DNA from: Candidatus Vogelbacteria bacterium
Lineage (GTDB): Bacteria; Patescibacteriota; Minisyncoccia; Phycocordibacterales; XYD1-FULL-46-19
DNA length: 64,000 nt
Direction: 5' to 3'
Assembly (NCBI GenBank): GCA_903878275.1
Contig: CAIRHC010000009.1
Coordinates: 11,855-75,854 of the forward strand
Both the position numbers and the translations under genes were made by a program. The notes below the pieces were generated by a model that made no database searches, had not been told where the DNA came from, and saw only the letters and a program-made list of their open reading frames with translations. Shown piece after piece: positions 2,768 to 43,893 of this stretch (position 1 is the first letter of the stretch; each line of letters starts with the position of its first letter).

Positions 2768-3433
2768 ATGGAAAGAAAATTTTCTTTTAGTTCTGGAGAA
2801 ACCTATCATATCTATAATCGTGGAGTAAATAAACAATTAGTTTTTCTTACCGACCACGATCGATTTCGTTTTTTGATTTTACTATATCTTACTAACAATA
2901 AAAAAGAGGTTCATATTAGTAATTATCGTGGTTTTTCTTTGCAAGATTATTTTGTCCTAGAAAAAGGTGAACCTTTAGTTGAGATTGTCGCTTATTGTTT
3001 AATGCCGAATCATTTTCACCTTATTCTAAAAGAGATTGAAGATGGGGGAATATCGAAATTTATGCTTAAACTTCTAACTGGTTATGGTATGTATTTTAAC
3101 AAAAAGAACGACAGAACTGGTCCTGTTTTCGATGGATGTTTTAAAGCAAAACATGTTGCGGAAGATTCTTCTTTGGAGTATCTTCTGGCTTATGTCCACT
3201 TAAATCCGGTAAAAATAAAAGACGAAGAAAGTTGGAGTGAAAAAAAGATTACTAATTTATCTAAAGCGAAGGATTTTCTTGAATCCTATCGTTTCTCTAG
3301 CTACCCAGCTTTTTTGGGACAGAATCGACCAGAAAATAATATTTTAAATTACAGCTCTTTGTTGGATGATTTAGCTGATGGGCAAAAAGATACAAAGGAG
3401 CTGATAAAAATCTGGGCAGAGTTCGAAGAGTAA
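2768..3433 (+). CDS. IS200-like / REP-associated Y1 (HUH) tyrosine transposase (RAYT-like)
   Basis: 221 aa carrying 'YHIYNRGVNKQLVF', a HUH motif 'YCLMPNHFHLILKE', and 'RTGPVFDGCFKAKHVAEDSSLEYLLAYVHLNPV' with a candidate catalytic Tyr. The pattern matches the COG1943/PF01797 family. The gene is flanked on both sides by identical REP hairpins. Confidence 0.6.
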   Translation: MERKFSFSSGETYHIYNRGVNKQLVFLTDHDRFRFLILLYLTNNKKEVHISNYRGFSLQDYFVLEKGEPLVEIVAYCLMPNHFHLILKEIEDGGISKFMLKLLTGYGMYFNKKNDRTGPVFDGCFKAKHVAEDSSLEYLLAYVHLNPVKIKDEESWSEKKITNLSKAKDFLESYRFSSYPAFLGQNRPENNILNYSSLLDDLADGQKDTKELIKIWAEFEE

Positions 3434-3456
3434 TATCAAGGGGAGTCCTTGATATT
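3432..3456. repeat. REP-like hairpin copy 2 (identical to copy 1), overlapping the RAYT stop codon
   Basis: Exact repeat of aatatcaaggggagtccttgatatt. Confidence 0.7.
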
Positions 3457-3516
3457 TAATATCGGCTAGATTTTTTGGCTAATTTTTGCTAAATTTAAGG
3501 GGTTTAAGTAGGAGAT

Positions 3517-3587
3517 TGCCGGATCATCTAATGGTAGGATGCATTCCTCTGGAGAATGTCATCTTGGTTCGAGTCCAAGTCCGGCAG
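3517..3587 (+). tRNA. tRNA-Gln (anticodon CTG)
   Basis: 7-bp acceptor tgccgga/tccggca. Anticodon stem cattc/gaatg with loop ctCTGga. T-arm cttgg-ttcgagt-ccaag. CCA is not encoded. Confidence 0.7.
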
Positions 3588-3680
3588 CAAACGACTTTCC
3601 TCTATGATTTAAGCCATTTTTTTAGGATAGGCTTCTTGGACGTCAGAACTTTTTGTCAAAAATAAAGTGAGTGGCAAGGC

Positions 3681-3700
3681 AGAGTAAAATTTACTATAAT
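3681..3700 (+). promoter_or_regulatory. Promoter-like 20-mer agagtaaaatttactataat (-10 TATAAT at 3695-3700), 6 nt upstream of an ATG
   Basis: A near-identical 20-mer recurs at 4009-4028 with the same 6-nt spacing to the next ATG. Confidence 0.4.
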
Positions 3701-3706
3701 ATAACT

Positions 3707-4015
3707 ATGGAGAATATAAATGGATTATATATAAAAAAAGAGGAATCAGAGGGTTATATACAAGAATTTGATCAATTGGCAACTTTAGGCGACATAAATC
3801 TTGGGGCGGGTAAAAAAGTAAGTTTCCAACCTTGGGGTCGCTATGACGGGGAAAGACAAGTTGGGACGGTTAGACTATGGGAAGAAGACCCCAACTTGAT
3901 TCATATAGTTTTTCGAGGAAGCAAAGCTGGCGTTCCCTATCCTGACGGGGAGCGAATTACCAGAGAAAACTTCAATCAACGGAAAAATATTTGGCAAATC
4001 AGGGAAGTAGAGTAA
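3707..4015 (+). CDS. Hypothetical protein (103 aa). The track ORF begins at GTG 3671, but that start would contain the TATAAT box.
   Basis: ORF with no recognisable domain. ATG lies 6 nt after the TATAAT box. Confidence 0.45.
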   Translation: MENINGLYIKKEESEGYIQEFDQLATLGDINLGAGKKVSFQPWGRYDGERQVGTVRLWEEDPNLIHIVFRGSKAGVPYPDGERITRENFNQRKNIWQIREVE

Positions 4016-21424: not shown

Positions 21425-22312
21425 ATGGCAACACTTTACACTCAGCAAGATTCAAATGTGCGGAAGACCTGGCTGTTGATGGGAGTTTTTTTGGCGGTGG
21501 TGGTTGGATTGGGTTATTTTGTCAGCTACTATTACAACAATCCGTTTATTTTGTCTTTCGCGATTGTTTTTTCCGTCGTGATGAACATTGCGAGTTATTG
21601 GTGGAGTGACAAATTGGTTTTGGCTTCGACCGGCGCTCGTGAAGCTGATCACGATACCTACACCGAGCTTTATCATCTGGTGGAAAATCTTTCGATTACC
21701 GCTGGACTGCCGATGCCCAAAATTTATATTGTCGATGATCCTGCCCCAAACGCTTTTGCGACTGGTCGTGACAAAAACCATGCGGTCGTGGCGGTGACAA
21801 CTGGTCTGATGGGGATGCTCAATAAAAACGAACTCGAAGGCGTAATTGCTCACGAATTGTCGCACATCGGCAATCGCGATATTCTACTTTCGACGGTGAT
21901 TGTAGTTTTGGTCGGAATGATTGCGATGATTGCCGATATGTTTACTCGTTCACTCTGGTTTGGCGGTGGCGATCGTGAAGATAAAAATAATCCACTGGCG
22001 ATTGTCGGAATTATTTTTGTCATTCTTTCGCCGATTTTGGCGACATTGATTCAGCTGGCGGTATCACGCAAACGTGAATTTTTAGCCGATGCGTCTGGCG
22101 CTCTGCTTACTCGTTATCCCGAAGGTCTGGCCTCGGCGCTGGAAAAAATTGGTCGATACAATGCGCCGATGCAAAAAGCGAGCAATGCGACCGCTCATCT
22201 TTTTATTTCCAATCCGTTTGGCGCTAAAGCGGCAAAAGGGATTAGTAAATTATTTATGACCCATCCGCCGATTGAAGAGCGGGTGCAATTATTACGAAAC
22301 GAAGCTGTTTAA
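21425..22312 (+). CDS. htpX: Zinc metalloprotease HtpX (M48)
   Basis: 'HELSHIGNRD' HEXXH motif, TM topology, and the conserved lemA-htpX linkage. Confidence 0.85.
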   Translation: MATLYTQQDSNVRKTWLLMGVFLAVVVGLGYFVSYYYNNPFILSFAIVFSVVMNIASYWWSDKLVLASTGAREADHDTYTELYHLVENLSITAGLPMPKIYIVDDPAPNAFATGRDKNHAVVAVTTGLMGMLNKNELEGVIAHELSHIGNRDILLSTVIVVLVGMIAMIADMFTRSLWFGGGDREDKNNPLAIVGIIFVILSPILATLIQLAVSRKREFLADASGALLTRYPEGLASALEKIGRYNAPMQKASNATAHLFISNPFGAKAAKGISKLFMTHPPIEERVQLLRNEAV

Positions 22313-22323
22313 ATAAAAAATTT

Positions 22324-23160
22324 ATGCCTAACCAACAAGAATTAGAAATAAACAAGATTTATCAAAGTGACTGCTTTGATTTAATAGAAAAAATCGAAGA
22401 TGAATCAATAGATTTGATAGTTTGTGACGGTCCTTATGGTATTACGGCAAACAGCTGGGATAAGGTTGGGAAAATACAAGAATACAATCTTAATTTGATA
22501 AAAGTATTCTCAAGAATCTTAAAAAATGGAGGCGGTCTGTATTTGTTTGGAAAAGCCAACTGTCTTGATTTTATAGATTATCGTCCTTATTTAAATTTAA
22601 ACTCAAAAATAATTTGGTATCAGCCAAGTCGATTGGCTCAAGGCAGAAATAACTACACTCACAACTATGATGTAATCGCTTATTTTTCAAAAGGCAAAAC
22701 AAAAGCGTTTAATTTGGATGATATCCGCGTGGCGCAAATGGTGGAATTAGAACATCGAAAAAGATGCGAGGCCGTCCCGTCTGTTGTCAACGGTCAATTC
22801 TATAAAACAAAATTTAACGAAAAAGGTAAAAATCCTGGTGACGTGTGGGGAGATATCAAGCAACTTACCTATAATTCAAAAGAGCTTTTGAATAGAGATT
22901 TTTTAAATACCATTCAAAAACCGATTAAGTTAATAGAGAGGATTGTGAAAGCTAGCAGTAACGAGGGAGATTTGGTGCTCGACCCATTTCTTGGGACAGG
23001 AACGACGGCTGTTGTTTGTAAAAATCTTAAAAGGAATTTTATCGGAATTGATAACGACCCCAAGATGATTAAGATTTGTGAAGATAGATTAAAAGATTTT
23101 CAATTAAAATCGAAGCAAACGAGTATTTTTGCTGTTAATTATGTTAATAATAAAAGATAA
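22324..23160 (+). CDS. Site-specific DNA methyltransferase, beta-class (N4-cytosine or N6-adenine)
   Basis: Motif IV 'VCDGPYGI' (a DPPY variant) precedes motif I 'DPFLGTGTTAVVCK'. This order is diagnostic of beta-class amino-MTases. Confidence 0.7.
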   Translation: MPNQQELEINKIYQSDCFDLIEKIEDESIDLIVCDGPYGITANSWDKVGKIQEYNLNLIKVFSRILKNGGGLYLFGKANCLDFIDYRPYLNLNSKIIWYQPSRLAQGRNNYTHNYDVIAYFSKGKTKAFNLDDIRVAQMVELEHRKRCEAVPSVVNGQFYKTKFNEKGKNPGDVWGDIKQLTYNSKELLNRDFLNTIQKPIKLIERIVKASSNEGDLVLDPFLGTGTTAVVCKNLKRNFIGIDNDPKMIKICEDRLKDFQLKSKQTSIFAVNYVNNKR

Positions 23161-23638
23161 AATCGTCTCTGAAATAATTGCTCTCGTAAGAAAGGCTCAA
23201 ATGCTGGCACTTAAAGTTGGAATTCCGAACATACTTCAACCGGGGCTAGTAAAAGAAATGATTACGGCTGAGATACTGGGTCATAATCTAATTACCTCCA
23301 AAAGAGATGCTGATGCTTGTGATAGTCAAGATCAGACAATCAAATATGAATACCTCTCGTGTTATGAGGGAGGTTCAGGACAACTAGATAGAATGTTCAA
23401 GTCACCAGCAGAAAAAAGAGCGGAATCACTGTGCCGGATTACTCGTAATAAGATGATTTACTTTGCTATTTTTTACAAAAAAGATCCTCTAAAAATAAAA
23501 GTAATCTATGAAATCACGCCAGAAGTGTTGCTAAAAGAAACAGAGCGACAATTAGACAGAAGCAGTAATGATATCTCTCACGTTGGATTTGGCGAGGAGT
23601 GGGCGATTAAAAATAGCAAAGTCGTTTATCAGGGTTAG
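23129..23638 (+). CDS. Putative type II restriction endonuclease, PvuII-like
   Basis: Overlaps the MTase 3' end by 32 nt. From memory of R.PvuII: 'LALKVGIPNILQPGLVKEMITAEILGH...RDADACDSQDQTIKYEYLS...YFAIFYK...IKVIYEITPE' parallels 'LALKHGINDIFQ..GGKLLQVLLITGL...NDAVDNAGQEYELKS...IFAIYRG..IEAIYRLEP'. Confidence 0.45.
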   Translation: MLLIMLIIKDKIVSEIIALVRKAQMLALKVGIPNILQPGLVKEMITAEILGHNLITSKRDADACDSQDQTIKYEYLSCYEGGSGQLDRMFKSPAEKRAESLCRITRNKMIYFAIFYKKDPLKIKVIYEITPEVLLKETERQLDRSSNDISHVGFGEEWAIKNSKVVYQG

Positions 23639-23671
23639 AGTAATTAAATAGATAATTTTAAAAATTAAATT

Positions 23672-24094
23672 ATGTTTGAACAATCAAATTCAAATTTAGA
23701 AAACGAAGCTGAAATAAGTAGCGAATCAGAAAATTCTTCACCAGCTAGACTGGAAGAATTTCAAAAAGAAATTGAAGAAATTTTTGAGCAGGAAAAAAGT
23801 GGCAGTCTTACCTCTGGACATTTTTCGCAGTCCGTCGATGATTTTTCGGTCAAAGAACTTGGACCAGATGAGTTGAATTTATGGCAAGACTTTAAGAGTT
23901 GTCAAAGCGGAGAAAAACCGATCGAGCACTGTGTCCAGAAAATTCGAGATTATCGAGATGGTCTGACTGAAGAAGAAAGAAAAAAAGTTGTCGTGAAAGG
24001 TCTCGTCAGTTATCTGGCTAATAAAATCACGGCAATGCACGGACAACAGCAGTTGAAAGAGCAAAGACAGAAAAAACAAGAAAGCTTAAAATAG
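23672..24094 (+). CDS. Hypothetical acidic protein (140 aa)
   Basis: ORF only. Confidence 0.4.
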   Translation: MFEQSNSNLENEAEISSESENSSPARLEEFQKEIEEIFEQEKSGSLTSGHFSQSVDDFSVKELGPDELNLWQDFKSCQSGEKPIEHCVQKIRDYRDGLTEEERKKVVVKGLVSYLANKITAMHGQQQLKEQRQKKQESLK

Positions 24095-24290
24095 CAAAAA
24101 GATCGAACTTAGAAAAAATTGAAAAAACTATAAATTTTCGCTAAGCTATTATGGTCTGGCTAAAGCGTGGTTGCTAAGACTTTTGCCATGTTGTTGATTA
24201 CGGCTAAAACATTTTTACAAATAAAAATGTTCGCCCGAGTAATTTTTACCCTAAAACAGATAATCTGTTCGGGCAAGAAAATTACTCTAG

Positions 24291-24380
24291 GGAGGGTTCG
24301 CATAGTGGTCTAGTGCGCCCGCTTGGAAAGCGTGTAAGGGGGAAACCCCTTCAAGAGTTCGAATCTCTTACCCTCCGCCA
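24291..24380 (+). tRNA. tRNA-Ser (anticodon GGA), CCA encoded
   Basis: Acceptor ggagggt/accctcc, anticodon loop ttGGAaa, long variable arm (aggggg-aaa-cccctt), T-arm aagag-ttcgaat-ctctt, then gCCA. One C.U mismatch in the anticodon stem. Confidence 0.7.
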
Positions 24381-24457
24381 AAATTGAAAATCGGAATCGG
24401 AAGCCGAAACGGATAAAATAATGGAAGAAATTGATGAAATAATACGATAAAATAACG

Positions 24458-25105
24458 ATGTATATTTTTCTTGATGAGAGTGGCAATTTTTCTAAACAAG
24501 ATCATGGGCAGTATTTTGTCGTTGGTTCTTTTACTGTCGGCGATACCAAGCGAACAAACAAAGAATTTCGTAAGTGGATTAGGACAAAATTTCCAATAAA
24601 AAAGTGCAAGCAAAGCGAGGTGAAGTGGTCTCAAAATAGCATCAGCGATGATCTTCGGTTGCGGACACTTAAAAATATTTCTAAGCTTGATGTCCGAATA
24701 AGGTTTGGTTATTTGTTGAGAAATAATATACCTAGTACCTATCGGAGAAAAGGCAAAATCGAATCTGGTCAGCTCTATACCAATATTATTGGTGAGGTTT
24801 TAGAGCAGTATATGCCGACGAACGACAAAGAAGTTCATATTTTTTGTGACCAGCGCTCTCTTAAGGGGATGACAAAGACTGGTTTTGAGATGGCTATCAA
24901 AGCCCATCTTTTGCCTTTTTGTTCCCCCGACACTCTAATCCAAGTTGAGATGGTAGATTCTACCTCTAGTTGTAATATCCAAATTGCCGACTGGATTTCT
25001 GGAGCAATTGCCCGATATCTTGAAAAAGGGAAAATGGGCAATGATTTTTATAAAGTTCTTAAGAATAACCTACTTGATCAGGGAAAAGAATTTTTTGCTC
25101 CTTAA
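24458..25105 (+). CDS. DUF3800 family protein
   Basis: N-terminal 'MYIFLDESGNF' is the DUF3800 hallmark. Confidence 0.6.
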   Translation: MYIFLDESGNFSKQDHGQYFVVGSFTVGDTKRTNKEFRKWIRTKFPIKKCKQSEVKWSQNSISDDLRLRTLKNISKLDVRIRFGYLLRNNIPSTYRRKGKIESGQLYTNIIGEVLEQYMPTNDKEVHIFCDQRSLKGMTKTGFEMAIKAHLLPFCSPDTLIQVEMVDSTSSCNIQIADWISGAIARYLEKGKMGNDFYKVLKNNLLDQGKEFFAP

Positions 25106-25407
25106 CTTAAAAATATGGCAACAAAAAAAGCGTGCCGAGGCACCCTTTCTTTGGTAGAAGCAGCGTCTTATATGATGACAGTCTCCAGTTTTACAACCGA
25201 TTTCTCAATTGTGCCTCGAATTCTCCGAGGGAACACCAGAGCACCTTATAAGCTATTATTGCATGCTTCTAATAAGAGCATAGCACTTAAAAAGGCAAGA
25301 ATCAAGAAAAGTCAAGCAAAATCAGAGAAACTGTGGATAAAGTTTTGTCAGAGCTGAAAATGTGTTGAAAAATAAGGGGATTTAGCTAATATAACTTCAC
25401 GCAAAAA

Positions 25408-31255: not shown

Positions 31256-32755
31256 ATGATCGTTGATCGAAAGATAAAAGGTGTGTTGTTGTCAATTTTC
31301 ACTCTGGTGCTTTTTAGTTGGAGTGGAGTAGCTTTTTCGGCTGATCTTAAAGTTGTTACCAATAAAACAAATTATCAAGTTGGTGATATCGTTTCAGCGA
31401 GAATTATCTTGTCTTCAGCCGATCAATCGGTCAATGCCGTGTCAGGGACTTTGAAATTTCCGACGGATAAACTGGAAGTGACTTCACTTAGTAAATCTGG
31501 CTCGGTCATCAATCTTTGGGTGCAAGAACCGGATTTTTCAAATAGCACTGGTGAAGTCAGTTTTGAGGGTGCAATTTTAAATCCCGGTTTTACTGGTGCA
31601 TCTGGTCAATCGTTGTCAGTGAATTTTAAAGCCAAAAAAGCTGGCACGGCGACAATATCTTTTTCGACAGGTTCAATTTTGGCAAATGATGGTCAGGGTT
31701 CGAGTATTCTCAAAAAACTTGGTCAAACTTCTGTGACTATCGGCAGTACCAAAGCTGTTATTGAGCCGGCGATCGAAGTAGAAAAACCGGTTGAAGTTGA
31801 AACAACAATTGCGCCCAAAAAAGAAACGAAAAATCAATATCCTGATGTGCCAAGTATTGTTTCGCTGACCAATCCTGATCAAAGTCTTTGGTACAGCATT
31901 AATTACCCGCAGTTGTCTTGGACGTTACCGGAAGACGTGACTGATGTCAGTCTGATTTTTGATAACAAGGAAAAAACAATTCCGCCGACCAAATCGCAAG
32001 GTTTGTTTTCCTCTTATGTCGATGGCAAAAGCGTTGCTGATGGTAATTGGTATTTTCACTTAAGATTTAAAAATAAAATTGGCTGGGGACCAGTCGGGCA
32101 TTACAAATTAAATATCGACACAAAAGAACCGGAGCGCTTTGAGGTGAACGAAGTGAAATTGGGGCAAGGTTCGGCGGGTGCGCGGTTTGTTTTTGACGGT
32201 ACTGATGCTTTGTCTGGAATTGATCATTTTGAATTTCAAGTTGATGATTCGGAACCGCAAATTATCAACGCTGATTCAGTCAAAACTTTTGATACGCCAG
32301 ATTTGCGAGCCGGGCGACACATTCTCACCGCACGAGTGATTGATCGAGCGGGGAATTTGGTGGTGAGAAAATTAACCTTTGCCATTGATCCAGAATTGAC
32401 CGGTTCATTTGCCGTGCGAGTGGGTGACAATTTAATTTTGGTCTTATCAGTTTTGGTGCCGTTAATTATTTTGTTGATGGCGCTGATTTATATTTTACTA
32501 ATCAGCTGGAAAAAGCTATCAACAATTAAACGGCGTTTGCGAAAAGAGGTGCGAGAAGCCGAAGATGGCCTACATCAAGCCTTTGATTTGATTAAAGAAG
32601 ATTTGCAGGTACAAATGGAATTGTTGAAAAAAGCCAAAACCAAACGAAAATTGACGGCGATAGAAACAAAAATAATGAAAAATATCAAAGCCGATTTGAA
32701 TGAAGCCGAGAAATTTATTAAAAATGAAATTGAAGATATTTCCAAACAAATTTAA
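31256..32755 (+). CDS. Paralogue of the previous gene: cohesin-like domain, single TM, C-terminal coiled coil
   Basis: 'VGDIVSARIILSSADQSVNAVSGTLKFPTDKLEVTSL...FEGAILNPGFTGASGQSLSVNFKAKKAGTATI' is about 60% identical to the 29404 N-domain. TM 'LILVLSVLVPLIILLMALIYILLI'. Confidence 0.5.
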   Translation: MIVDRKIKGVLLSIFTLVLFSWSGVAFSADLKVVTNKTNYQVGDIVSARIILSSADQSVNAVSGTLKFPTDKLEVTSLSKSGSVINLWVQEPDFSNSTGEVSFEGAILNPGFTGASGQSLSVNFKAKKAGTATISFSTGSILANDGQGSSILKKLGQTSVTIGSTKAVIEPAIEVEKPVEVETTIAPKKETKNQYPDVPSIVSLTNPDQSLWYSINYPQLSWTLPEDVTDVSLIFDNKEKTIPPTKSQGLFSSYVDGKSVADGNWYFHLRFKNKIGWGPVGHYKLNIDTKEPERFEVNEVKLGQGSAGARFVFDGTDALSGIDHFEFQVDDSEPQIINADSVKTFDTPDLRAGRHILTARVIDRAGNLVVRKLTFAIDPELTGSFAVRVGDNLILVLSVLVPLIILLMALIYILLISWKKLSTIKRRLRKEVREAEDGLHQAFDLIKEDLQVQMELLKKAKTKRKLTAIETKIMKNIKADLNEAEKFIKNEIEDISKQI

Positions 32756-35700
32756 AATCTGGAAAATCTTGGTGATTTTTCTGTTGCTGGTAATTTTACC
32801 CGTTGGCTTTTTGGTAAAAGCTTCGACTGTTCCGGCGATAATTAGTTATCAAGGACGTTTGGCTGACGCTGATGGCAATTTGCTCGGTGGCGCTGGGACC
32901 GATTATAATTTCAAGATTTCTTTTTGGACTAGCCCGACGGTTGGTGCTGGTTCGCGTGTTTGGCCATCGTCTGCTCCGACGGCTTTCGTCTCGACCGTTC
33001 GTCACGGCTTATTTAATTTAAATATTGGCGATACGACTGGTGGTTATCCTGATGCACTTGATTATGATTTTTCAAGTAATGATAAAATTTATTTGCAAGT
33101 TGAAGTTTCTAGCGGCGGCGCTTACGAGACATTATCGCCACGCCAGCTGATGACCAGTACGCCGTTTGCGTCACTGGCGGGTGCGGTGTCTGGTTCTGGC
33201 GCTTCGACGATGGGCTCGCTTACTGTGACTGGAAATTCCACTACGACCAATGCCACGACCACAAATTTATATGCCAATTCTAGTATAGGTTTGAATGGTC
33301 TTTATGTTAACAATTGGTCTGATTTAGCACCTTATCTTCCGACAGCGGCTGGCTGGGGAACATCAAGCGATAGTATAAATTTTAATTCTTTATTAGATGC
33401 TAAAGATAAAGGATATTTTTTCGCTTCTTCTTCGGCTGATGTCTGGGGCGCGTCGAAAGGTTATCTAACTTCATATTCTGAAACCGATCCTGTTTGGACT
33501 TCCGAAAAAGCTGGTTACCTCACGACAGGTACTGCGGCTTCTACTTATCTTACTTTGTCTGCCTCTACCTCATTACCTTATCAGCCGGTTGGAAGTTATT
33601 TGATTACCGAATCTGATCCGATATTTATGGCTGCCTCGTCCTCGTTTCTAACTTTAAATAATTGGTTTGCCACTACTACTTGGGGCGGGTCATCATTAAG
33701 TGTTGGGACCAATAATACTTATGGCTCGCTAACTGCGATGGGCGGGACTACTTTTTCTACTGTTCCACCTTACGGCACAGCGTCGATCGGTCATATTTCT
33801 CATACTTCTGGTTGGGATGGTAGCGGGTTTTTGTTTAGTAATTCTTCTGTTGGTTCAAATGCTTTTTCGATGGTTTACAATGTCGATAAAGCTTGGTTTG
33901 GGGGAATTACTGATAGTTCTGGTGTCGCTTGGATGACGCTTGATGCTGGAGGTTTGCAATCATACGGTACTGTTTCTGGTACTAATTTATCCGGTACAAA
34001 CACTGGTGATGTTACTTTGGCGAACAATTTAAATGGCTTAACAATTTCTAATCAAGTTTTAACCTTGGGTCTAGCCTCAACCAATGCTACTGGTACTCTT
34101 TCTGCTACCGATTGGAATACTTTCAATAATAAACAGCCGGCTGGTAATTATCTCACTTCATATTCAGAGACTGATCCTGTTTGGACTTCCGAAAAAGCTG
34201 GTTATCTTACCACTGGTGCTGCCGCTTCCACTTATTTAACTATTTCGGCTTCCACCTCAATTAGGTCTCTGCCAAATCTCTCCATTACCAAATCTCAAGT
34301 TTCTGATTTTGGCTCACCGCTTTATTCATACTCTGAAACCGATCCACTATACGCTTCAGCTTCATCTTCTATCTTAAGATTTGGCACAACCTCTGATGTT
34401 TTGACTGAAGGTGCGACAAATAAATTTTACACTGACACTAAAGTTGCAAATTACATAAATAGTTCCTCGACGCTTGGTTTTCAAAACTTTACGGCTGGTC
34501 ACGGCACCACCACAAATTTTTATGCTGGCACTAGTCTTGGTTTGAATAGTCAATATATTAGCAATTGGTCGGAACTCGCGGCTTTTTTGCCGACTGTAAC
34601 CGGATGGAGTACTACGAGTGATAGTGTGAATTGGCAAGATAATTGGAATTCGGTAAAAGGGGATTACTTAACTATCTCCAGTGCCGGCTCTACTTATCTA
34701 CCACTTTCAGCGTCCACTTCTTTAGCTTATGTTAAAACCGAAACTGATCCGGTGTGGACGTCAGAAAAATCTGGTTATCTCACTACTGGTCTGGCAGCTT
34801 CGACATATCTTACTTTGGCCGCCTCTACTTCTTTAGCTTATCAACCAATCGGAAATTATCTCACTTCATATTCAGAAACTGATCCAGTTTGGACTTCCGA
34901 AAAAGCCAGTTATCTCACTACTGGTGCCGCCGCTTCCACTTATTTAACAATTTTGGCTTCCACCTCAATTAGGTCTCTGCCAAATCTTTCAATTACTAAA
35001 TCTCAAGTCTCTGATTTTGGCTCACCGCTTTATTCATACTCTGAAACCGATCCCGTTTTTACCGCGTGGAACAAAACGACCGGTATCACTATCTCCGAAT
35101 CGCAAATTACAGATTTGCAAGACTACCTAACTACCGAATCTGATCCGGTCTGGACATCAGAAAAAGCTAGTTATCTCGCTACTTCGGGCAATGGTGGCTC
35201 GTTGACTGGTTTGACTAAGACTCAAGTTGGTTTATCAAATGTTGACAATTATTCTTCAACCACGCTCGAAGTTTTGTCGGCGACCAAACTAAAAACGGCA
35301 CGTACTATAAATGGTGTATCGTTTGATGGTACGGGAAATATTACGGTGACTGATGCTGGTTACACTGCCGCTTCGTCATCGATTCTACGTTATGGCACAA
35401 CAACAGATGCCTTGACCCAAGGCTCGGTCAATAAATTTTATGCGCAAGCTTTGGTGTGGAATGATATTTGGGCATCCTCAACTTTAGCTACGACATTAAA
35501 CAATTCTGCCACTGCTTACGGTTGGGGCAATCACGCCGATGCTGGTTATCTTACCACCGGTGCCGCCGCTTCCACTTATTTAACTATTTCGGCTTCCACC
35601 TCAATTAGGTCTCTGCCAAATCTTTCAATTACCAAATCTCAAGTTTCCGATTTTGGCTTACCGCTTTATTCGTATACTGAAACTGATCCGGTCTGGAATG

Positions 35701-38700
35701 CTACGAAGGGCAATTATCTTTTGTTGGCTGGTGGTACGATGACTGGTGATTTGACGATTAGTAATAAAAATTTGACGGTCACAGGCACCTCCACTTTAGC
35801 GACTACGACCATCACCAATCTTTCTGGAAATATTATTACGAGCAATGATGTTCGCACGGCGATTACCGATCTCGATACTCGTCTTTATAATATGCAAAAC
35901 ACCACCAAAGAAATGACCGGTTTTCCAAACCGTACCGATACTTCTATTTCTTTCAATAACATAAATCGCAATTTCACCATCACTGGTACTAATTTCAAAA
36001 TTTACAGCGCCGGCAAAGAATATGTCAAAAATACCGAATCGATTCAACTTGCCAATACAAACGGTGTCCAATTTGTTTATTATTCGCCAGTTACTTTAAC
36101 TTTGAGTACTAGTACGACCGTTTGGAATTTTAATGATGGTACTGTTCAGATTGCTACCGTGCACTGGGATGGCACGACTGGTTTGCTTGGCGAGGAACGT
36201 CATGGTCTGACAATGGACAATGCCACACACGAATATTTGCATCACACCGTGGGTACGCGTTATCAATCTGGTCTGACTGGCACTTTTAATACAAACAATA
36301 CTTTGTCTGTTACGGCTGGTTCAATTGATGATGAAGACATCGAAGATTCTGTTGCTTTGACTACGACAACAAGAATAATTTATCATCTTAACGCTACTAA
36401 TTTTACCCAATCGGCAGTCGGCACGAGTTTCTTTGATAAGACCTGTACTGGTTCGAATCTTTGTTATGACAACGGCACCGGTAAAGTGGCAGCGACTGGT
36501 AATAATTATGTTGCCTATTGGATTTTTGCAACCAACGATGCTTCAAATGGTGTCTATGTGTTAATGGGACAAAGACAAGATACAAGTTTGGCAAATGCCC
36601 AAGCGAACGCCACATATTCAAGTTTGACTTTGGGTAACTTACCATTCGCTGAAATGAAATTACTTTATCGTTTGATTGTGAGAAACAATGCTGGTAATAC
36701 TTTGGATACTAGTGATTATCGATCGGTTTCAAACCTGCCGTCTGGCACTTATGTCGCGACTGCTCACAATGTTTTGACCGGTCTTGATTATGCTTCGTCT
36801 GGTCATACTGGTTTTGCCGGCACAGGGGTAGATAATACTTTTACCGGTCACGATATTTTTGCTTCTTTGTTTGCTACCAATGCTTCGAGTACTAATGCTA
36901 CCACCACAAATCTTCAAGTGGTCGCCACCTCGACGGTCGGTGGTTTAAGTATTGGTTCGTTGTCTGGAATCTTAAAAGCGGTGGCGGGTGCCGTGACCAC
37001 TTCTTTGATTGACTTAGCCAATGACGTCACCGGTGTGCTTGGTGGCACTCACGGTGGTACGGGTCTTTCGACTGTTACCAACAACGAACTCCTAATCGGC
37101 TCGACCGGAAATACTTGGCTACAAATTGCGACTTCATCACTGGGAATGCTCACGACCAATGTCGCCGAAGGCACTAGACTTTATTATACCGATGTCCGAG
37201 CTCGTGGCGCAATTTCTTCGGGTGCACTTGGTCTGACTTACAATTCTGGTACAGGGGCTTTTTCCTTGACGACTGATTATAATATTCCGTTGACAGCTTC
37301 GACGACAAATTGGAATACAGCGTTTAATTGGGGCAATCATGCTGATGGCGGTTATCTGAAAACTTCAGGTGGTACAATGTCTGGAATATTAACCATAAAT
37401 AACAATCTAAATTCTACTGGTACTTCTACTTTGGCGACGACAACTATGTCTTATGGCTCTAAGATTGGTTATGGTAATGAATATTTTACAGTAAATCAAT
37501 ATCCGGTAGCGGGGAGTATCCTTAGCGGGACTATTCCGATAATTAGCTTTAACAGCCCCAACGCTTGGGGTTCTGATGTGGGAGGTTTCGCTGATTCCTT
37601 GGCTATCTTAGAAACGGGTCAGGCTGATGATCCTGTCGGTATTAATTTTGTCGCCAGTGATTTCGCCAACAACTTGAATGTCGGATCGTTAACTTATGCC
37701 ACAACCTCTAATGTTTTTGTTTTATCTAATGCCAACGGGAATAATGTTGACCTGTCTTTGGGTGGAGGTGTTTTTAGTGGCAGCGTTGTGTCTGACGTCT
37801 ACAAAATTAATGGTCCGGCTAACATCAATTCTTTCCTTGCCACTGACGGTGCTGGTCAAATTATCGCAACGACAACACCAGTTCTTTATGGAGCAACTAC
37901 TGACTCATGGAACACTGCTTATTCTGATCGCTTAAAATGGGATGGTGGCTCCAGCGGTCTTAACGCTTCTACTGCGCGGACCTCTCTGGGGTTAGTAATT
38001 GGTACTAATGTCCAAGCTCAAAACGCGGGGCTTTCAGATATCGCCGGTCTGACATTGACGGACGGTAATTTTATTGTTGGCAACGGTTCTAACTGGGTCG
38101 CTGAAAGTGGAGCGACCGCGCGGACGTCAATTGGTTTGGGTAGTGTGGAAAATACAGCACTCTCTACTTGGGCTGGTTCGTCTTATCTCACTACGGCTGG
38201 CAATCTTACTGCGACCGGTTTGCAAGTAAATGGCAATTCGACTACGACTGGTTTTAGCACTTTAGCAACAACCACCATCTCTCGTTTAGATGTTGGGAAC
38301 ACGACTCTTTTTTATTCCACTCCGATGGGTAGTTTGATGAGTCAGAAAATAACTTCAGCTTTTGCGGGTCTGACTGGTTTTGTTAATACCACTGGTGCTG
38401 GTGATTGGGTTATGATTATGCCGCCTGGAGATTTGTGGCCAGGAGCTCCAGAAGTTGATGCTTCCGTAGGTGGAGTTACGGGTAATTTTTCTTTGACCTC
38501 AACTGCCCCTGATACTTTAGGTATGTTTTATGGTAATCAATGGAACGGTTCCTATTCTGGAGATTTGTCAGGCTTACTTCAGGGGATTTCTAATAACTAT
38601 GCAACTAAGATTGAATCTGGAGCGACGGTTAGTACTCTATCCGGGCTGTCTAGTTTTTCTTCAGATGTTGAAAATCAGGGAGCAATTACCGGAGATTTTA

Positions 38701-39647
38701 CAAATTTCTTAGTCAACAATGTATCTGGCGGTGGCACTTTAAGTGGTAATTTTTATGGTTTAAAAATTGGTGGTGCAGGCGAGATGGGCGGAACTCAAAA
38801 TTACTCCATTTATTCCGATGGCGGTTTAAATTATTTTGCTGGCAATGTTGGTATCGGTGTAGAAGTGCCTACTCATCCTTTAGAATTTGCAGGCGGTGCT
38901 TATTCTGATGGTCTTACTTGGAGTAATGGCTCTGATCGCAACATCAAAGAAAACTTTGTTACTCTTGATTCGACGGAAATTTTAAATAAAATAAATCAAT
39001 TACCAATCATGCAGTGGAATTATAAAACACAGGAGGCGACTACCACTCATATTGGACCAATGGCACAAGATTTTTACGCTTTGTTTGGTGTTGGCGGTTC
39101 GGATAAATCGATTTCCACAATTGATCCATCGGGCATTGCTCTTGTCGGTATCCAAGCGTTGAGTGAAAAAACGAAAACGCTCGAAGACAATCTGAAAATA
39201 CTTTTGGCAATGTCTGGCAACTGGGGCATTGGGGCGAGCGGGGAATTGATGCTCGAAAAAATCACGACCAAAAAAGCGGAAGTGCAAAATGATATTCAAA
39301 TTGGTTCGCCAGAAAAAAGAATCGGTATCACTTTGTTTGACGAACAAACCGGCGAGCCGTATTGTTTGAAAATTTCTGGCGGGCAAACTAAGACGACAAA
39401 TGGAAAATGCTCGGATGCTGACGGTGATAGCGTTGGAAGTGGTGGGACAAGTGCTGGTAGTAATCAGGCGGGAAATAATTCATCGTCTAGTGGTAATACG
39501 GCGAGTAGCACCGATGATCAGAGTAATTCATCGACAACACCAGAAGTAGTGCCAGAAAATCCAACACCAGAGACAACTCCCGCACCAGAAGTTTCTTCTC
39601 CACAAGATGGACAAACTCCTCCCGCTGATTCGGCACCGGCATCTTAA
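32700..39647 (+). CDS. Giant (2315 aa) surface fibre-like protein: N-terminal anchor, shared N-module, tandem S/T-rich repeats, C-terminal intramolecular-chaperone (peptidase S74, phage tail-fibre type) domain and a P/T/S-rich tail
   Basis: N-terminal 'ISYQGRLADADGNLLGG...' module. Repeats 'YLTSYSETDPVWTSEKAGYLTTGAAASTYLT'. C-terminal 'GNVGIGVEVPTHPLEFAGG...SDRNIKENFVTLDSTEILNKINQLPIMQWNYK...GPMAQDFYALFG...IALVGIQAL' with the SDxRxK hallmark. The alternative start at 32724 overlaps the upstream stop. Confidence 0.7.
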   Translation: MKPRNLLKMKLKIFPNKFKIWKILVIFLLLVILPVGFLVKASTVPAIISYQGRLADADGNLLGGAGTDYNFKISFWTSPTVGAGSRVWPSSAPTAFVSTVRHGLFNLNIGDTTGGYPDALDYDFSSNDKIYLQVEVSSGGAYETLSPRQLMTSTPFASLAGAVSGSGASTMGSLTVTGNSTTTNATTTNLYANSSIGLNGLYVNNWSDLAPYLPTAAGWGTSSDSINFNSLLDAKDKGYFFASSSADVWGASKGYLTSYSETDPVWTSEKAGYLTTGTAASTYLTLSASTSLPYQPVGSYLITESDPIFMAASSSFLTLNNWFATTTWGGSSLSVGTNNTYGSLTAMGGTTFSTVPPYGTASIGHISHTSGWDGSGFLFSNSSVGSNAFSMVYNVDKAWFGGITDSSGVAWMTLDAGGLQSYGTVSGTNLSGTNTGDVTLANNLNGLTISNQVLTLGLASTNATGTLSATDWNTFNNKQPAGNYLTSYSETDPVWTSEKAGYLTTGAAASTYLTISASTSIRSLPNLSITKSQVSDFGSPLYSYSETDPLYASASSSILRFGTTSDVLTEGATNKFYTDTKVANYINSSSTLGFQNFTAGHGTTTNFYAGTSLGLNSQYISNWSELAAFLPTVTGWSTTSDSVNWQDNWNSVKGDYLTISSAGSTYLPLSASTSLAYVKTETDPVWTSEKSGYLTTGLAASTYLTLAASTSLAYQPIGNYLTSYSETDPVWTSEKASYLTTGAAASTYLTILASTSIRSLPNLSITKSQVSDFGSPLYSYSETDPVFTAWNKTTGITISESQITDLQDYLTTESDPVWTSEKASYLATSGNGGSLTGLTKTQVGLSNVDNYSSTTLEVLSATKLKTARTINGVSFDGTGNITVTDAGYTAASSSILRYGTTTDALTQGSVNKFYAQALVWNDIWASSTLATTLNNSATAYGWGNHADAGYLTTGAAASTYLTISASTSIRSLPNLSITKSQVSDFGLPLYSYTETDPVWNATKGNYLLLAGGTMTGDLTISNKNLTVTGTSTLATTTITNLSGNIITSNDVRTAITDLDTRLYNMQNTTKEMTGFPNRTDTSISFNNINRNFTITGTNFKIYSAGKEYVKNTESIQLANTNGVQFVYYSPVTLTLSTSTTVWNFNDGTVQIATVHWDGTTGLLGEERHGLTMDNATHEYLHHTVGTRYQSGLTGTFNTNNTLSVTAGSIDDEDIEDSVALTTTTRIIYHLNATNFTQSAVGTSFFDKTCTGSNLCYDNGTGKVAATGNNYVAYWIFATNDASNGVYVLMGQRQDTSLANAQANATYSSLTLGNLPFAEMKLLYRLIVRNNAGNTLDTSDYRSVSNLPSGTYVATAHNVLTGLDYASSGHTGFAGTGVDNTFTGHDIFASLFATNASSTNATTTNLQVVATSTVGGLSIGSLSGILKAVAGAVTTSLIDLANDVTGVLGGTHGGTGLSTVTNNELLIGSTGNTWLQIATSSLGMLTTNVAEGTRLYYTDVRARGAISSGALGLTYNSGTGAFSLTTDYNIPLTASTTNWNTAFNWGNHADGGYLKTSGGTMSGILTINNNLNSTGTSTLATTTMSYGSKIGYGNEYFTVNQYPVAGSILSGTIPIISFNSPNAWGSDVGGFADSLAILETGQADDPVGINFVASDFANNLNVGSLTYATTSNVFVLSNANGNNVDLSLGGGVFSGSVVSDVYKINGPANINSFLATDGAGQIIATTTPVLYGATTDSWNTAYSDRLKWDGGSSGLNASTARTSLGLVIGTNVQAQNAGLSDIAGLTLTDGNFIVGNGSNWVAESGATARTSIGLGSVENTALSTWAGSSYLTTAGNLTATGLQVNGNSTTTGFSTLATTTISRLDVGNTTLFYSTPMGSLMSQKITSAFAGLTGFVNTTGAGDWVMIMPPGDLWPGAPEVDASVGGVTGNFSLTSTAPDTLGMFYGNQWNGSYSGDLSGLLQGISNNYATKIESGATVSTLSGLSSFSSDVENQGAITGDFTNFLVNNVSGGGTLSGNFYGLKIGGAGEMGGTQNYSIYSDGGLNYFAGNVGIGVEVPTHPLEFAGGAYSDGLTWSNGSDRNIKENFVTLDSTEILNKINQLPIMQWNYKTQEATTTHIGPMAQDFYALFGVGGSDKSISTIDPSGIALVGIQALSEKTKTLEDNLKILLAMSGNWGIGASGELMLEKITTKKAEVQNDIQIGSPEKRIGITLFDEQTGEPYCLKISGGQTKTTNGKCSDADGDSVGSGGTSAGSNQAGNNSSSSGNTASSTDDQSNSSTTPEVVPENPTPETTPAPEVSSPQDGQTPPADSAPAS
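33460..35700 (+). repeat. Intragenic tandem repeats: four copies of a ~150-195-nt unit, three of them near-identical (about 34150-34345, 34861-35055, 35545-35690)
   Basis: Near-exact nucleotide repeats read directly, e.g. '...gaaaaagctggttatcttaccactggtgctgccgcttccacttatttaac...caattaggtctctgccaaatct...'. They encode '...TSEKAGYLTTGAAASTYLTISASTSIRSLPNLSITKSQVSDFGSPLYSYSETDP'. Confidence 0.7.
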
Positions 39648-39879: not shown

Positions 39880-42800
39880 ATGCAATTCCGAGACTCGAAA
39901 ATTCAGAGTTTTCTTTTAATATTTGCATTTGTCGCCACCCTTACTTCAGTAGGGCTATTTGGAGTAAATAAAGCCGAAGCGGCACCCAATCTCACCATAA
40001 ACTATCAAGGTAAAATGACTGATAATCTCGGAGTGACTTTAGCTGATGGTAATTATACTTTTGTCTTTAGTTTGTACACTGGAGCCTCTGGTGGTTCAAA
40101 CGTTTGGACCGAGACCCAAACTGTCACCATCACCAATGGATTATTCTCCACCATGCTTGGTTCGGTCACACCATTTACTGATAATCTTTTTAATCAAACA
40201 TTATATCTTGGTGTCAAAGTCGGAGCTGATCCAGAAATGACGCCCAGGAAAATTATCGGTTCGGTTCCATCGGCTCTTGAAGCGGAAAAACTAAATGGTC
40301 TGGCGGCTGTCTCTTTTCTTCGATCCGATATTGCTAATGCCACTGGTACTATCAATAATTTCAACAACACCAATGCTACTTCATCCAATTTGAATGTTTC
40401 TAATCTTTTGACAGTGGAAGGGGATTTGACTGTTTTGGGGGATAGTAATCTTGCCACTACAACGACTGGCAATCTCACCGCTGGTTCTACTTTGTATGTC
40501 AAAAACGGTCAGGTTGGAGTGGGATTCGATCCGGCAGTTTTGCTCGGTACTGTTTTTGGCACCAATAAAACTTGGACAGAGACAACCGGGCAGTTGGCTT
40601 CCAACTATTTTAATTCAACTTTTAGCCCGACGGGAGCGTCCGATGCTTTTCAGACTGGTCTTTACAATGTCGTGACCGCTGATGGCTCTAATAACCAACT
40701 TATTTTGGTGGGTCAAACGGTGAGTTCTGTCTACGGTGGTACAGCCAACTTAGCCTACTTGCAAGGGGCATCTATCTCTTCGGATTTGGCAAACACTGGT
40801 AGTATTACGAGTGCGTCGGCTGTTAGTGGTCAGATTAATAATGGTTTGGATAGTAATGGTGGAAATATTACTGATGCTGCTGTCTTTTCCGCAAAAACCA
40901 GTTTGGGTGATTCGGCTGGTGTAGTGACCAATGCTGCTAATTTTGACTCTCGATTCACTGTTCAGAGTGGATCAATAGTTAACGCTTACGGTGCTTATCT
41001 GGCTAATCCTTGGCTTCCTGGTTCTGGCACCATCACTAATTTGTATGGTTTGTATGTCCAAGATCAAACTAAGGGTAGTAACTTAAATTACAATATTTAT
41101 TCGGCTGGAGCGACCAGCAAAAATTATTTGGAAGGTAATTTGACGGTCGGAGGCAATGCCACGGCAACCAGCTTTGCTTTGAATAACGAAAAATTTACCA
41201 ATTGGGTTGGCTCTAATCTTTACAACAACAATGGGATTCTTGGAGTTACTACGACACCGACTTTTAGTAGTCTGACGGTAAATGGTAATGCCACGGCAAC
41301 CAGCTTTGCTTTGAATAACCAGACCTTTACCAACTGGCTTGGTTCTAATCTTTATAATAGTAACGGTACTCTTGGCGTTACTACCACACCTTCTTTTAGT
41401 GGTCTAACTGCGACCTACGCAACCACAACAAATCTTAACGCTGGCTACCTTAATGTTTCTGGTGGCACCCAAACGGTTGTTGGTGGAACAAACATATCTT
41501 TACCGGCGGTTAAGGGTCTTTCGGTCAATGAAAAAATAGTCGGGAATTACTTATACATGGTTTTTATGTCTCCGACCTCTACCGATCAATTAAGAATCGT
41601 GGATATTTCTGATCCAACTAATCCCAAGGTGGTGGGTGGACAGAATTTGTCTTTACCAGTTTATGGAGCGAGGTGGATAGATGTTGTCGGTAAATATGCT
41701 TATATTGGTTTTGAAAATAATCCCTACGGTTTTCGGATTGTAGATATTTCTGATCCAACTAATCCTTTTATCGTGGGTGGTGATAAGCTACAATTTGGTT
41801 CGTCTATCAGAGGGGTAAAAGTTGTCGGTAAATATGCTTATCTGGCACGCTATACCCCAAACGGATTTTCTATTGCTAGTTTAATTATTCTAGATATTTC
41901 CGATCCTTATGATCCCAAGGTGGTTAGTCCTGACACTATTCCTGGTTTGGTTAGTGAAGCCCGGTCTATTGATGTCGTCGGTAAATATGCTTATCTAGTA
42001 TCTTACTTTAATGATCCGTTGGATCCTGGTAATACTGGTCCCAACGTTTTACGTATCGTTGACATTTCTAACCCAGCGAACCCTGTTGTGGTTGGCGGTT
42101 CGTCTTTAGTTTTGCCAGACTATGCCCGGCAGGTTCAAGTAGTTGGTCGTTACGCTTACGTCATTTTTGATTCTTTTGGTTCCGTTGAAGGGATTGACCA
42201 GGGGTTAAGACAAAACGAAGCGTTTAGGATTTTGGATATTTCTGATCCCACCAACCCCGTTGTTGTTGGAGGAGATAATTTAAATTTTAGCACAGGTCTT
42301 GTTTCCGGCGGTGGCCTAAGATCTCTTTATGTGGCGGACGGTCTTGCTTATACAACCGAAGGTAATGGAGTTTTGCATGTTATTGACGTGTCTAGTTCAA
42401 CCAATCCGGTTTCTCGAAGTCAGTTTTTACTAGAAAAGTCTCCTGGCTACTCTCTTGCGATTTGGGCACTTGCTGTGTCCGGTAACTATGCTTATGTCGG
42501 CACACCTGATACTCCTTTTTCTTCAAACTCAACGAACGTTTTGAGAGTGGTGGATTTAAAGGGTTTAAAGACTGGTACGGCAAACATTGGCACTCTAAAA
42601 ATTGGCTCACTTAATGCCGAATCTGATATTGTGACAGCTCGGGATATTTTTGCCAACGGTCTTAACCTTGGTGTGGGGGGGATTATCACAGATGGTAGTA
42701 TTAGTGTTATTGGTACTACTACATCCTCTTTCTTTGGTGGCAACCTTGGTTTGGGTACAACCACTCCAGCCTACACTCTAGTCGTCGGCAACGGCAGTAC

Positions 42801-43893
42801 TACCGACACCGCTCGTTCCATTCAAGTCGCCTATGGTGGTATCTGTGTTGATGATGATGGTTGGTGTAATGCGACAGCCGGAGTCATCTCGGCGGTCTCA
42901 TACACCACTGGTCATGCTGACCTAGCCGAAAACTACCAAGCTTTTGAAGACAATCTAGAAGCCGGAGACATAGTCTCGGTAACTAATGAAAATAACTCTA
43001 CCGCTACAAAACTCGGTGACACCTTCGGCATTAAAAAAGCCAATCAAAAAACCGACATCATTGGTATCGTTTCCACCGCTCCCGGTGTCTTACTTGGTTC
43101 ACCAAATGGTGAAGCCAACACCAAAAAACTCCCCGTCGCTCTCTCTGGACGAGTCCCACTCAAAGTCAATCTTGAAGGCGGTGATATCAATTTCGGTGAT
43201 CCCATCACGCTATCTTCAATCCCTGGTATTGGGATGAAAGCGACTTCTTCCACTGAAACGATTGGTACGGCTTTAACTTCATTTGATGCTAATTCAACTC
43301 AAACTGAACCAGGCATCGGACAAATCACTGTTTTTGTTAATCTCGGCTATTCACATATCGATAACCAAATCAGTCAAGGTAAAATCAATGCCACCAACTT
43401 CTGGTCACTAGATGAAACAACTGGACAAATTAAAGTTCTCGCTCCGCTTGATTTATCTGGTCTTGATATTAAAAATGTAAAATCCATTACTTCCGCTTCC
43501 GGTAATTGGAGTATTAGTGATGATGGGATGCTGGTGGTGAAGAAAATCGAGACAGATGAAATTACGACCGAAACTGGCGTGACCGTGAAAGACAAGATGT
43601 CTGGTGGCTACAATTGTATTTATGTTGAAGGTGGTCAGATGAAAAATAAAGTTGGGTCTTGCGTTGAGCCGGTTTTGGCGCCGATTTCAAATGGCAATAA
43701 TCAAAATGAAACTGTTAATGCCAGTTCGTCTGATTCGAGTGGTGGGCAAGGTCAAGATAATGGCTCGACAACTCCACCTGTTGAATCGCCAACCTCAACA
43801 ACTCCACCGGAATCTGTCGTTCCACCGGTTTCTGAAACGCCACCAGCACCGGTTGAGGCGCCAGCTTCCGAGCCGGTGGTGCCTGGTCCGTAG
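39880..43893 (+). CDS. Giant (1337 aa) surface protein: signal peptide, N-module shared with the 32700 protein, G/T/S-rich repeats, LVIVD-type beta-propeller repeats, and a P/T/S-rich C-terminal tail
   Basis: Signal peptide 'MQFRDSKIQSFLLIFAFVATLTSVGLFGVNKAEA'. 'INYQGKMTDNLGVTLADGNYTFVFSLY' parallels the 32700 N-module. Repeats 'LRIVDISDPTNPKVVGG', 'FRIVDISDPTNPFIVGG', 'LIILDISDPYDPKVV', 'LRIVDISNPANPVVVGG', 'FRILDISDPTNPVVVGG', 'LHVIDVSSSTNP' (LVIVD). Tail '...TPPVESPTSTTPPESVVPPVSETPPAPVEAPASEPVVPGP'. Confidence 0.7.
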   Translation: MQFRDSKIQSFLLIFAFVATLTSVGLFGVNKAEAAPNLTINYQGKMTDNLGVTLADGNYTFVFSLYTGASGGSNVWTETQTVTITNGLFSTMLGSVTPFTDNLFNQTLYLGVKVGADPEMTPRKIIGSVPSALEAEKLNGLAAVSFLRSDIANATGTINNFNNTNATSSNLNVSNLLTVEGDLTVLGDSNLATTTTGNLTAGSTLYVKNGQVGVGFDPAVLLGTVFGTNKTWTETTGQLASNYFNSTFSPTGASDAFQTGLYNVVTADGSNNQLILVGQTVSSVYGGTANLAYLQGASISSDLANTGSITSASAVSGQINNGLDSNGGNITDAAVFSAKTSLGDSAGVVTNAANFDSRFTVQSGSIVNAYGAYLANPWLPGSGTITNLYGLYVQDQTKGSNLNYNIYSAGATSKNYLEGNLTVGGNATATSFALNNEKFTNWVGSNLYNNNGILGVTTTPTFSSLTVNGNATATSFALNNQTFTNWLGSNLYNSNGTLGVTTTPSFSGLTATYATTTNLNAGYLNVSGGTQTVVGGTNISLPAVKGLSVNEKIVGNYLYMVFMSPTSTDQLRIVDISDPTNPKVVGGQNLSLPVYGARWIDVVGKYAYIGFENNPYGFRIVDISDPTNPFIVGGDKLQFGSSIRGVKVVGKYAYLARYTPNGFSIASLIILDISDPYDPKVVSPDTIPGLVSEARSIDVVGKYAYLVSYFNDPLDPGNTGPNVLRIVDISNPANPVVVGGSSLVLPDYARQVQVVGRYAYVIFDSFGSVEGIDQGLRQNEAFRILDISDPTNPVVVGGDNLNFSTGLVSGGGLRSLYVADGLAYTTEGNGVLHVIDVSSSTNPVSRSQFLLEKSPGYSLAIWALAVSGNYAYVGTPDTPFSSNSTNVLRVVDLKGLKTGTANIGTLKIGSLNAESDIVTARDIFANGLNLGVGGIITDGSISVIGTTTSSFFGGNLGLGTTTPAYTLVVGNGSTTDTARSIQVAYGGICVDDDGWCNATAGVISAVSYTTGHADLAENYQAFEDNLEAGDIVSVTNENNSTATKLGDTFGIKKANQKTDIIGIVSTAPGVLLGSPNGEANTKKLPVALSGRVPLKVNLEGGDINFGDPITLSSIPGIGMKATSSTETIGTALTSFDANSTQTEPGIGQITVFVNLGYSHIDNQISQGKINATNFWSLDETTGQIKVLAPLDLSGLDIKNVKSITSASGNWSISDDGMLVVKKIETDEITTETGVTVKDKMSGGYNCIYVEGGQMKNKVGSCVEPVLAPISNGNNQNETVNASSSDSSGGQGQDNGSTTPPVESPTSTTPPESVVPPVSETPPAPVEAPASEPVVPGP

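Follow-up and report, generated by a model that had tools for sequence, protein, structure and literature searches.

Can two overlapping genes, one for a DNA methyltransferase and the other for a PvuII-like nuclease devoid of the usual catalytic lysine, make up a working restriction-modification (R-M) system? The question is raised by positions 22324-23638 of a 64,000-nucleotide (nt) stretch of contig CAIRHC010000009.1 from a Candidatus Vogelbacteria bacterium, called here the window. A preliminary description, made from the letters of this stretch, had read the locus as a Type II R-M pair. Both open reading frames (ORFs) exist where it had placed them, on the same strand, and its reading of them as a pair is borne out by the Pfam and PDB matches of the methyltransferase, by the PvuII fold of the second product and by the methyltransferase-then-nuclease linkage found in 69 loci. 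We estimate at about 80% the probability that the two genes form a functional, horizontally acquired Type IIP R-M cassette in a Patescibacteria genome (Paceibacteria, Vogelbacteria-like). The relevant features are as follows.

22324..23160, + strand: methyltransferase gene, 278 amino acids (aa), from the ORF list and the match to PF01555
22426-22437: motif IV of the methyltransferase, DGPY, aa 35-38
22987-23007: motif I of the methyltransferase, FLGTGTT, aa 222-228
23141..23638, + strand: gene of the predicted PvuII-fold nuclease, 165 aa from the ATG at 23141, from homologue starts and fold evidence
23129..23638, + strand: mechanical ORF of the nuclease, 169 aa from a TTG start, whose residue numbering is used throughout
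23141..23160, + strand: overlap of the two genes, 20 nt (32 nt with the TTG at 23129), a likely site of translational coupling

The first gene encodes a complete beta-class N6/N4 DNA methyltransferase. Its product covers positions 1-219 of the 221 of the Pfam profile PF01555 (N6_N4_Mtase), with an E-value of 4.7e-41 and 141.6 bits for a gathering cut-off of 26.7 bits, and the PADLOC MTase_II models for Type II methyltransferases match it at 1.9e-48. The beta-class order of motifs seen in the preliminary description, with motif IV N-terminal to motif I, agrees with the Pfam and PDB matches, but the specific likeness to M.PvuII that it implied is not supported. The best solved relatives are M.MboIIA (PDB 1g60), which aligns over its full length (aa 7-249 with 2-247, E 1.2e-35), and M.RsrI (1e-22 in the PDB search), both of them N6-adenine enzymes, whereas M.PvuII (1boo) matches only the C-terminal S-adenosylmethionine (AdoMet) region, aa 198-264, at 6.4e-5. 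The window enzyme shares with M.MboIIA and M.RsrI the order motif IV, target-recognition region, motif I, as well as a motif IV that begins with Asp. It differs from them within that motif, which is D-P-P-Y in these two enzymes but DGP[YF] in 69 of the 69 methylases of the cassettes described below, Gly replacing the first Pro of the canonical (D/N/S)-P-P-(Y/F/W); the Gly is therefore a family trait rather than damage. A further difference is that M.MboIIA comes from a Type IIS system, whose site is asymmetric. The first residue of motif IV is typically Asp in adenine enzymes and usually Ser in N4-cytosine enzymes, so that adenine methylation is the likelier chemistry, and the enzyme probably modifies adenine at N6. 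The best NCBIfam model is the adenine-specific PRK11524, with a score below the equivalog cut-off. In the cassette, the enzyme would methylate adenine within a short palindromic site and in this way shield host DNA.

The second product belongs, as judged by sequence comparison, to a large and unannotated family of PvuII-fold proteins. Homologues at 65-83% identity form more than 1,200 clusters, nearly all of them unnamed or 'hypothetical', and searching 1.8 billion representatives of clusters added relatives with identities as low as about 22%, of which 183 have E <= 1e-3. Given this number of clusters, and the 141.6 bits of the methyltransferase, neither ORF arose by chance. The PvuII fold is supported by three kinds of comparison. 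First, a profile of 35 distant relatives was aligned by hhalign with R.PvuII, whose sequence was verified against the PDB, with a probability of 96.9% and E 1.5e-10 over 145 columns (residues 12-168 with 8-157). Second, 14 of these 35 relatives match the PvuII endonuclease profile of Pfam (PF09225, Endonuc-PvuII) individually with E-values of 0.01 or less, down to 1.4e-5. Third, a search with Foldseek of an AlphaFold (AF2) model built on the family alignment (mean predicted local distance difference test score, pLDDT, 88.3; predicted template modelling score, pTM, 0.80) returned R.PvuII as all of the 12 best PDB matches, with E-values of 8e-8 to 2e-6 and template modelling (TM) scores of 0.57-0.66; the next were the BisI-family proteins Eco15I-Ntd and NhoI, then DpnI and RecU. 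The PvuII likeness noted at the outset for the second ORF is thus upheld by the profile alignment and by the structural search. The nuclease resembles R.PvuII (PF09225; PDB 1PVI, 1PVU, 1NI0) in its size of about 160 aa and, as modelled, in its fold and the succession of its secondary-structure elements, the N-terminal dimerisation helices among them, at an identity of only about 20%. In PvuII these helices are the dimer interface (PMC3258161), and the nuclease probably acts likewise as a homodimer through the matching N-terminal helices.

The N-terminal region also bears on where the gene begins. The nearest homologues start at the fifth codon of the 169-aa ORF, the ATG at 23141; the nuclease gene is therefore most likely 23141-23638, coding for 165 aa, with an overlap of 20 nt. 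An overlap had already been noted and is retained, but its length is in all likelihood not the 32 nt first given. We also considered a later start at Met25 (nt 23201), as in the public 145-aa record P0001, which has GAAAGG upstream. It was rejected, since residues 5-24 are conserved in the homologues (I16, A23 and Q24 being invariant in 23 sequences) and form, in the AlphaFold model, a long N-terminal helix matching the PvuII dimer interface.

That the two genes belong together is also indicated by other genomes. A single-protein scan of genome contigs gave 6 loci and an alignment-based scan of metagenomes 80. Among the loci with room upstream of the nuclease gene, 69 have a methylase 62-85% identical to that of the window directly upstream and on the same strand. 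Most of the junctions in these 69 cassettes overlap or abut (about -52 to +6 nt), and several share the -19 offset of the window. The hosts include Jacksonbacteria, Staskawiczbacteria and Nealsonbacteria (Candidate Phyla Radiation, CPR), Omnitrophota, Elusimicrobiota and Bacteroidota, and the flanks are unrelated from one host to another: the cassette lies between DHFR and ThyA, beside GatB or beside acyl-CoA dehydrogenase. Adjacent and co-oriented methyltransferase and nuclease genes are thus found across several phyla in unrelated surroundings, which is the linkage criterion for a Type II R-M system. Exceptions are few. In L090 the methylase is downstream and convergent; for L034, L056 and L065, the 500-900 nt of sequence available upstream of the nuclease gene contain no methylase that tblastn could find. 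In L004, an IS1595 transposase gene lies between the methylase and nuclease genes; on this Jacksonbacteria-type contig the IS1595-family gene, at 3174-3959, uncouples the two genes of the cassette.

No gene for a controller (C) protein had been seen in the preliminary description, and indeed there is none in the window, where only 11 nt separate the htpX stop codon from the methylase start. In Bacteroidota copies, a 69-aa HTH_3 gene stands directly upstream of the methylase (2984-3193 in L007 and L008; also in L013). It possibly encodes a C protein; it is not present in the window or in most other copies, including those of CPR bacteria.

That the cassette was acquired horizontally can be read from its own surroundings. 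The GroEL of the host is 93% identical to sequences labelled as Vogelbacteria. Its closest relatives are L095, whose GroEL is 93% identical, and L097 (83%). Both keep the order SecG-GroES-GroEL-LemA-HtpX-small gene-tRNA-Ser but have no methyltransferase-nuclease pair, and because the site is empty in these relatives, with the same neighbours on either side, the cassette is a clean insertion, placed after htpX and before the small gene. Two features describe it.

22313..23671: cassette as inserted, 1,359 bp, bounded by the htpX stop codon and by the orthologue of the small gene
23672-24094: small conserved gene, which precedes tRNA-Ser(GGA)

The G+C content of the cassette is 0.34, that of htpX 0.46 and that of the window 0.40. 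Furthermore, the R-M proteins are about 80% identical across phyla, when GroEL is about 75-80% identical within the class, and this indicates horizontal spread. A tblastn search against plasmid and phage collections gave no match.

Several results weigh against a functional cassette and are best considered together. Some concern recognition of the nuclease: its own match to PF09225 (E 1.1e-3, 19.4 bits) is below the gathering cut-off of 25 bits, PDB searches by sequence only, whether with the protein or with a profile of its close family, were insignificant (E 0.15-0.43), none of the restriction endonuclease models of PADLOC matches it, and neither does any model of NCBIfam. Others concern expression: a scan of 21900-24500 for promoters and terminators gave no more sites than shuffled sequence, with none upstream of the methylase, and no Shine-Dalgarno-like sequence was identified for either gene. 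In view of the 11-nt gap and of the absence of a promoter-like site upstream, the cassette is probably transcribed by read-through from htpX. The nuclease start, devoid of a Shine-Dalgarno-like sequence, lies inside the methylase gene; this layout suggests translational coupling, in which the nuclease, carried by the same transcript, would be translated at a low level, and in dependence on the methylase, by the ribosomes finishing that gene. A third set of results concerns the target. Site avoidance was evaluated with order-2 and order-4 Markov expectations in about 480 kb from 39 non-redundant host contigs, and attempts to deduce the target from it gave nothing specific. None of the 4-bp palindromes is depleted in all hosts. 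Some 6-bp palindromes are moderately low in the pooled contigs, with observed/expected (O/E) ratios of 0.31 for GTCGAC, 0.35 for CTCGAG and 0.43 for CTGCAG, and GATATC (0.59) is below expectation in 22 of 22 loci, but nearly all palindromes are low in this DNA; interrupted palindromes gave no clear depletion signal. Lastly, the nuclease lacks the canonical (D/E)xK catalytic lysine.

In PvuII the catalytic centre consists of D58, E68 and K70, and the change Y94F lowers Mg2+ binding (PMC3258161). The corresponding residues of the nuclease were taken from the hhalign profile alignment, and 199 close and 65 distant relatives (264 in total) served to count how often each is conserved; the fractions below refer to the distant ones.

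23255-23257: codon of E43, predicted active site, first core helix, 58/65
23300-23302: codon of K58, conserved basic candidate, 56/65
23312-23314: codon of D62, predicted active site, aligned with D58 of R.PvuII
23348-23350: codon of E74, predicted active site, aligned with E68
23354-23356: codon of L76, which occupies the position of K70
23435-23437: codon of R103, conserved basic candidate, second core helix, 54 R and 4 K of 65; R103 and I104 are aligned with K93 and Y94
23444-23446: codon of R106, conserved basic candidate, second core helix, 58 R and 5 K of 65

The PvuII triad is therefore incomplete in the alignment: D62 matches the 'AD' aspartate D58 and E74 the third-strand glutamate E68, but Lys70 is replaced by Leu76. 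The preliminary description had cautioned that the segment KYEYLS lacks the lysine of E-x-K, and rightly so, since KYEYLS (K72-S77) aligns on YELKS of PvuII with Leu76 on Lys70. Misalignment, which it had kept as one explanation, is contradicted by the hhalign placement and by the family as a whole: position 76 is L, F, V, I or C in 264 of 264 relatives and Lys in none. A swapped 'K-x-E' arrangement was also considered, because an ungapped phmmer alignment puts K72 on E68 and E74 on K70. It was discarded, as K72 is found in only 19 of the 65 distant relatives and hhalign sets E74 on E68 with a 2-residue insertion.

The hydrophobic residue in all 264 relatives, together with the lack of a matching PADLOC model, could mean that the protein keeps the PvuII fold but is catalytically dead, serving as a DNA-binding or regulatory partner of what would effectively be a solitary methyltransferase. 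We regard this as unlikely. One would not expect an inactive scaffold to retain its carboxylates, but D62 and E74 are almost invariant, as is E43, even among relatives at 22-45% identity, and E43, H52 (61 of the 65 distant relatives), D62, E74, R103 and R106 are conserved throughout the close and distant sets. Moreover, the gene almost never occurs without a methylase directly upstream, which is the pattern expected of a toxic nuclease. There are also PD-(D/E)XK enzymes that are active although their lysine has moved or been replaced (PMC551604, PMC3424549): in the 'PD-EXX-K' nucleases COG4636/Tt1808 and Pa4535, the catalytic Lys has moved to the second core helix and left a hydrophobic residue behind. 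The nuclease of the window is like these enzymes in having a hydrophobic residue at the xK position, a conserved His and, by sequence pattern, a conserved basic residue on the second core helix (R103 or R106). They are, nevertheless, separate families with no detectable sequence relationship to it, and the candidate here is Arg rather than Lys.

For an active nuclease, the best reading of these patterns is a metal site made of E43, D62 and E74, in which D62 and E74 would be metal-binding carboxylates joined by E43 from the first core helix. R.PvuII has Leu39 where the nuclease has E43, but PD-(D/E)XK active sites canonically include a Glu on the first core helix, and BisI relatives require it (PMC11347163). 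A conserved basic residue at another position may have taken over the role of the canonical lysine. We favour R103, which aligns beside Tyr94 of PvuII, on the helix matching the one that bears this residue, or else R106; K58 would be an alternative.

The BisI family bears on yet another possibility, namely that the nuclease is modification-dependent, like NhoI and Eco15I or like DpnI. BisI enzymes (NhoI and the N-terminal domain of Eco15I) have a PvuII-like fold and dimer, an 'AD/WD' aspartate and the catalytic Glu of the first core helix, and they have been described as the closest relatives of PvuII (PMC11347163). In our Foldseek search Eco15I-Ntd, NhoI and DpnI follow PvuII, at E-values of 7e-5 to 1e-2, but PvuII matches better than these by a factor of 100 to 100,000. 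BisI enzymes are methylation-dependent, have no paired methyltransferase and retain the lysine as QVK or QIK (PMC11347163), whereas almost every locus links the nuclease to a methyltransferase, an arrangement that would be self-destructive if both enzymes had the same specificity. We find modification dependence the least probable of the alternatives and hardly credible.

What site, then, would the pair recognize? The resemblance to PvuII, i.e. the fold, the weak PF09225 match and a beta-class methylase like M.PvuII, might suggest a true PvuII isoschizomer, in which the nuclease would cut CAG^CTG and the methylase would make N4-methylcytosine. The residues by which PvuII reads CAGCTG, which we take to be the His83-85 loop, Asn140/Asn141 and Asp34 (partly from the title of PDB entry 3pvi), are not kept in the hhalign alignment: H83/H85 correspond to D87/R88, N140/N141 to S150/H151 and D34 to P38. 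D87 and R88 are invariant in the nuclease family. The PvuII-like reading of DNA implied by the preliminary description is accordingly not sustained, all the more as His84, in the loop so altered, makes a hydrogen bond to guanine and senses the protective N4-methyl group in PvuII (PMC4705667). On the methylase side, the partner is of the M.MboIIA/RsrI adenine type and not of the M.PvuII type, judging from the far weaker and C-terminal match to the latter and from a motif IV that starts with Asp and not with the Ser typical of N4-cytosine enzymes. Nor is there the under-representation of CAGCTG by which a PvuII specificity was to be recognized: the 64-kb window contains 13 copies for 10.1 expected, one of them inside the methyltransferase gene, and the site is mildly low in pooled host DNA (61 for 83.6 expected). 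Because the base-reading residues are lost and the methylase is of the adenine type, the target is probably not CAGCTG, and we hold an isoschizomer of PvuII to be very improbable.

Two other sites are strongly depleted in the 64-kb window: GGCC, with 35 occurrences for 198 expected (O/E 0.18), and CATG, with 27 for 108 (O/E 0.25). This depletion is not common to the other cassette hosts, and therefore the genome of this bacterium probably carries elsewhere, or has met, restriction systems specific for GGCC and CATG.

One may go further and propose, tentatively and at somewhat less than even odds in our view, that it is the founding example of an active PvuII-fold family of pattern E...AD...ExL...R, in which an arginine of the second core helix replaces the lysine and whose partner is a D-G-P-Y adenine methyltransferase, with a site unlike that of any PvuII relative. 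Such a family would be a natural experiment on the PvuII-type active site without its lysine and may yield a new cleavage specificity. There is also a practical consequence. Standard annotation overlooks the nuclease (sub-threshold in Pfam, unmatched in NCBIfam and PADLOC, 'hypothetical' in public records), so that the methylase would be scored as solitary in thousands of genomes of uncultivated bacteria and their restriction load understated. In other respects this would be a conventional mobile Type II system, which leaves the understanding of restriction-modification unchanged.

Some further observations concern the neighbourhood of the cassette. Beyond htpX, the small gene and tRNA-Ser(GGA), the downstream DNA differs between close relatives, with the following contents.

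Window, 23672-24380 region: DUF3800 and GIY-YIG gene
L095, 12958-15212: T5orf172 and Mrr_cat nuclease
L097, 11614-13206: serine recombinase

The tRNA-Ser locus thus looks like a hot-spot for integration or defence. The DUF3800 gene at 24458-25105 (+ strand; PF12686, 1.6e-14) also matches the PADLOC candidate defence model PDC-M04A at 4.9e-10, and immediately downstream of it sits the Rfam DUF3800-V RNA motif (RF02964), at 25156-25270 on the - strand, with 60.2 bits for a cut-off of 37.4. Farther away on the + strand, two long ORFs probably encode giant surface proteins, one of 2,315 aa (32700-39647) with a C-terminal Peptidase_S74 (endosialidase chaperone) domain and the other of 1,337 aa (39880-43893) with LVIVD repeats. 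A bacterial class A RNase P RNA lies at 47378-47685 (+ strand) and scores 119 bits, with a length of only about 308 nt for a model of 367 positions.

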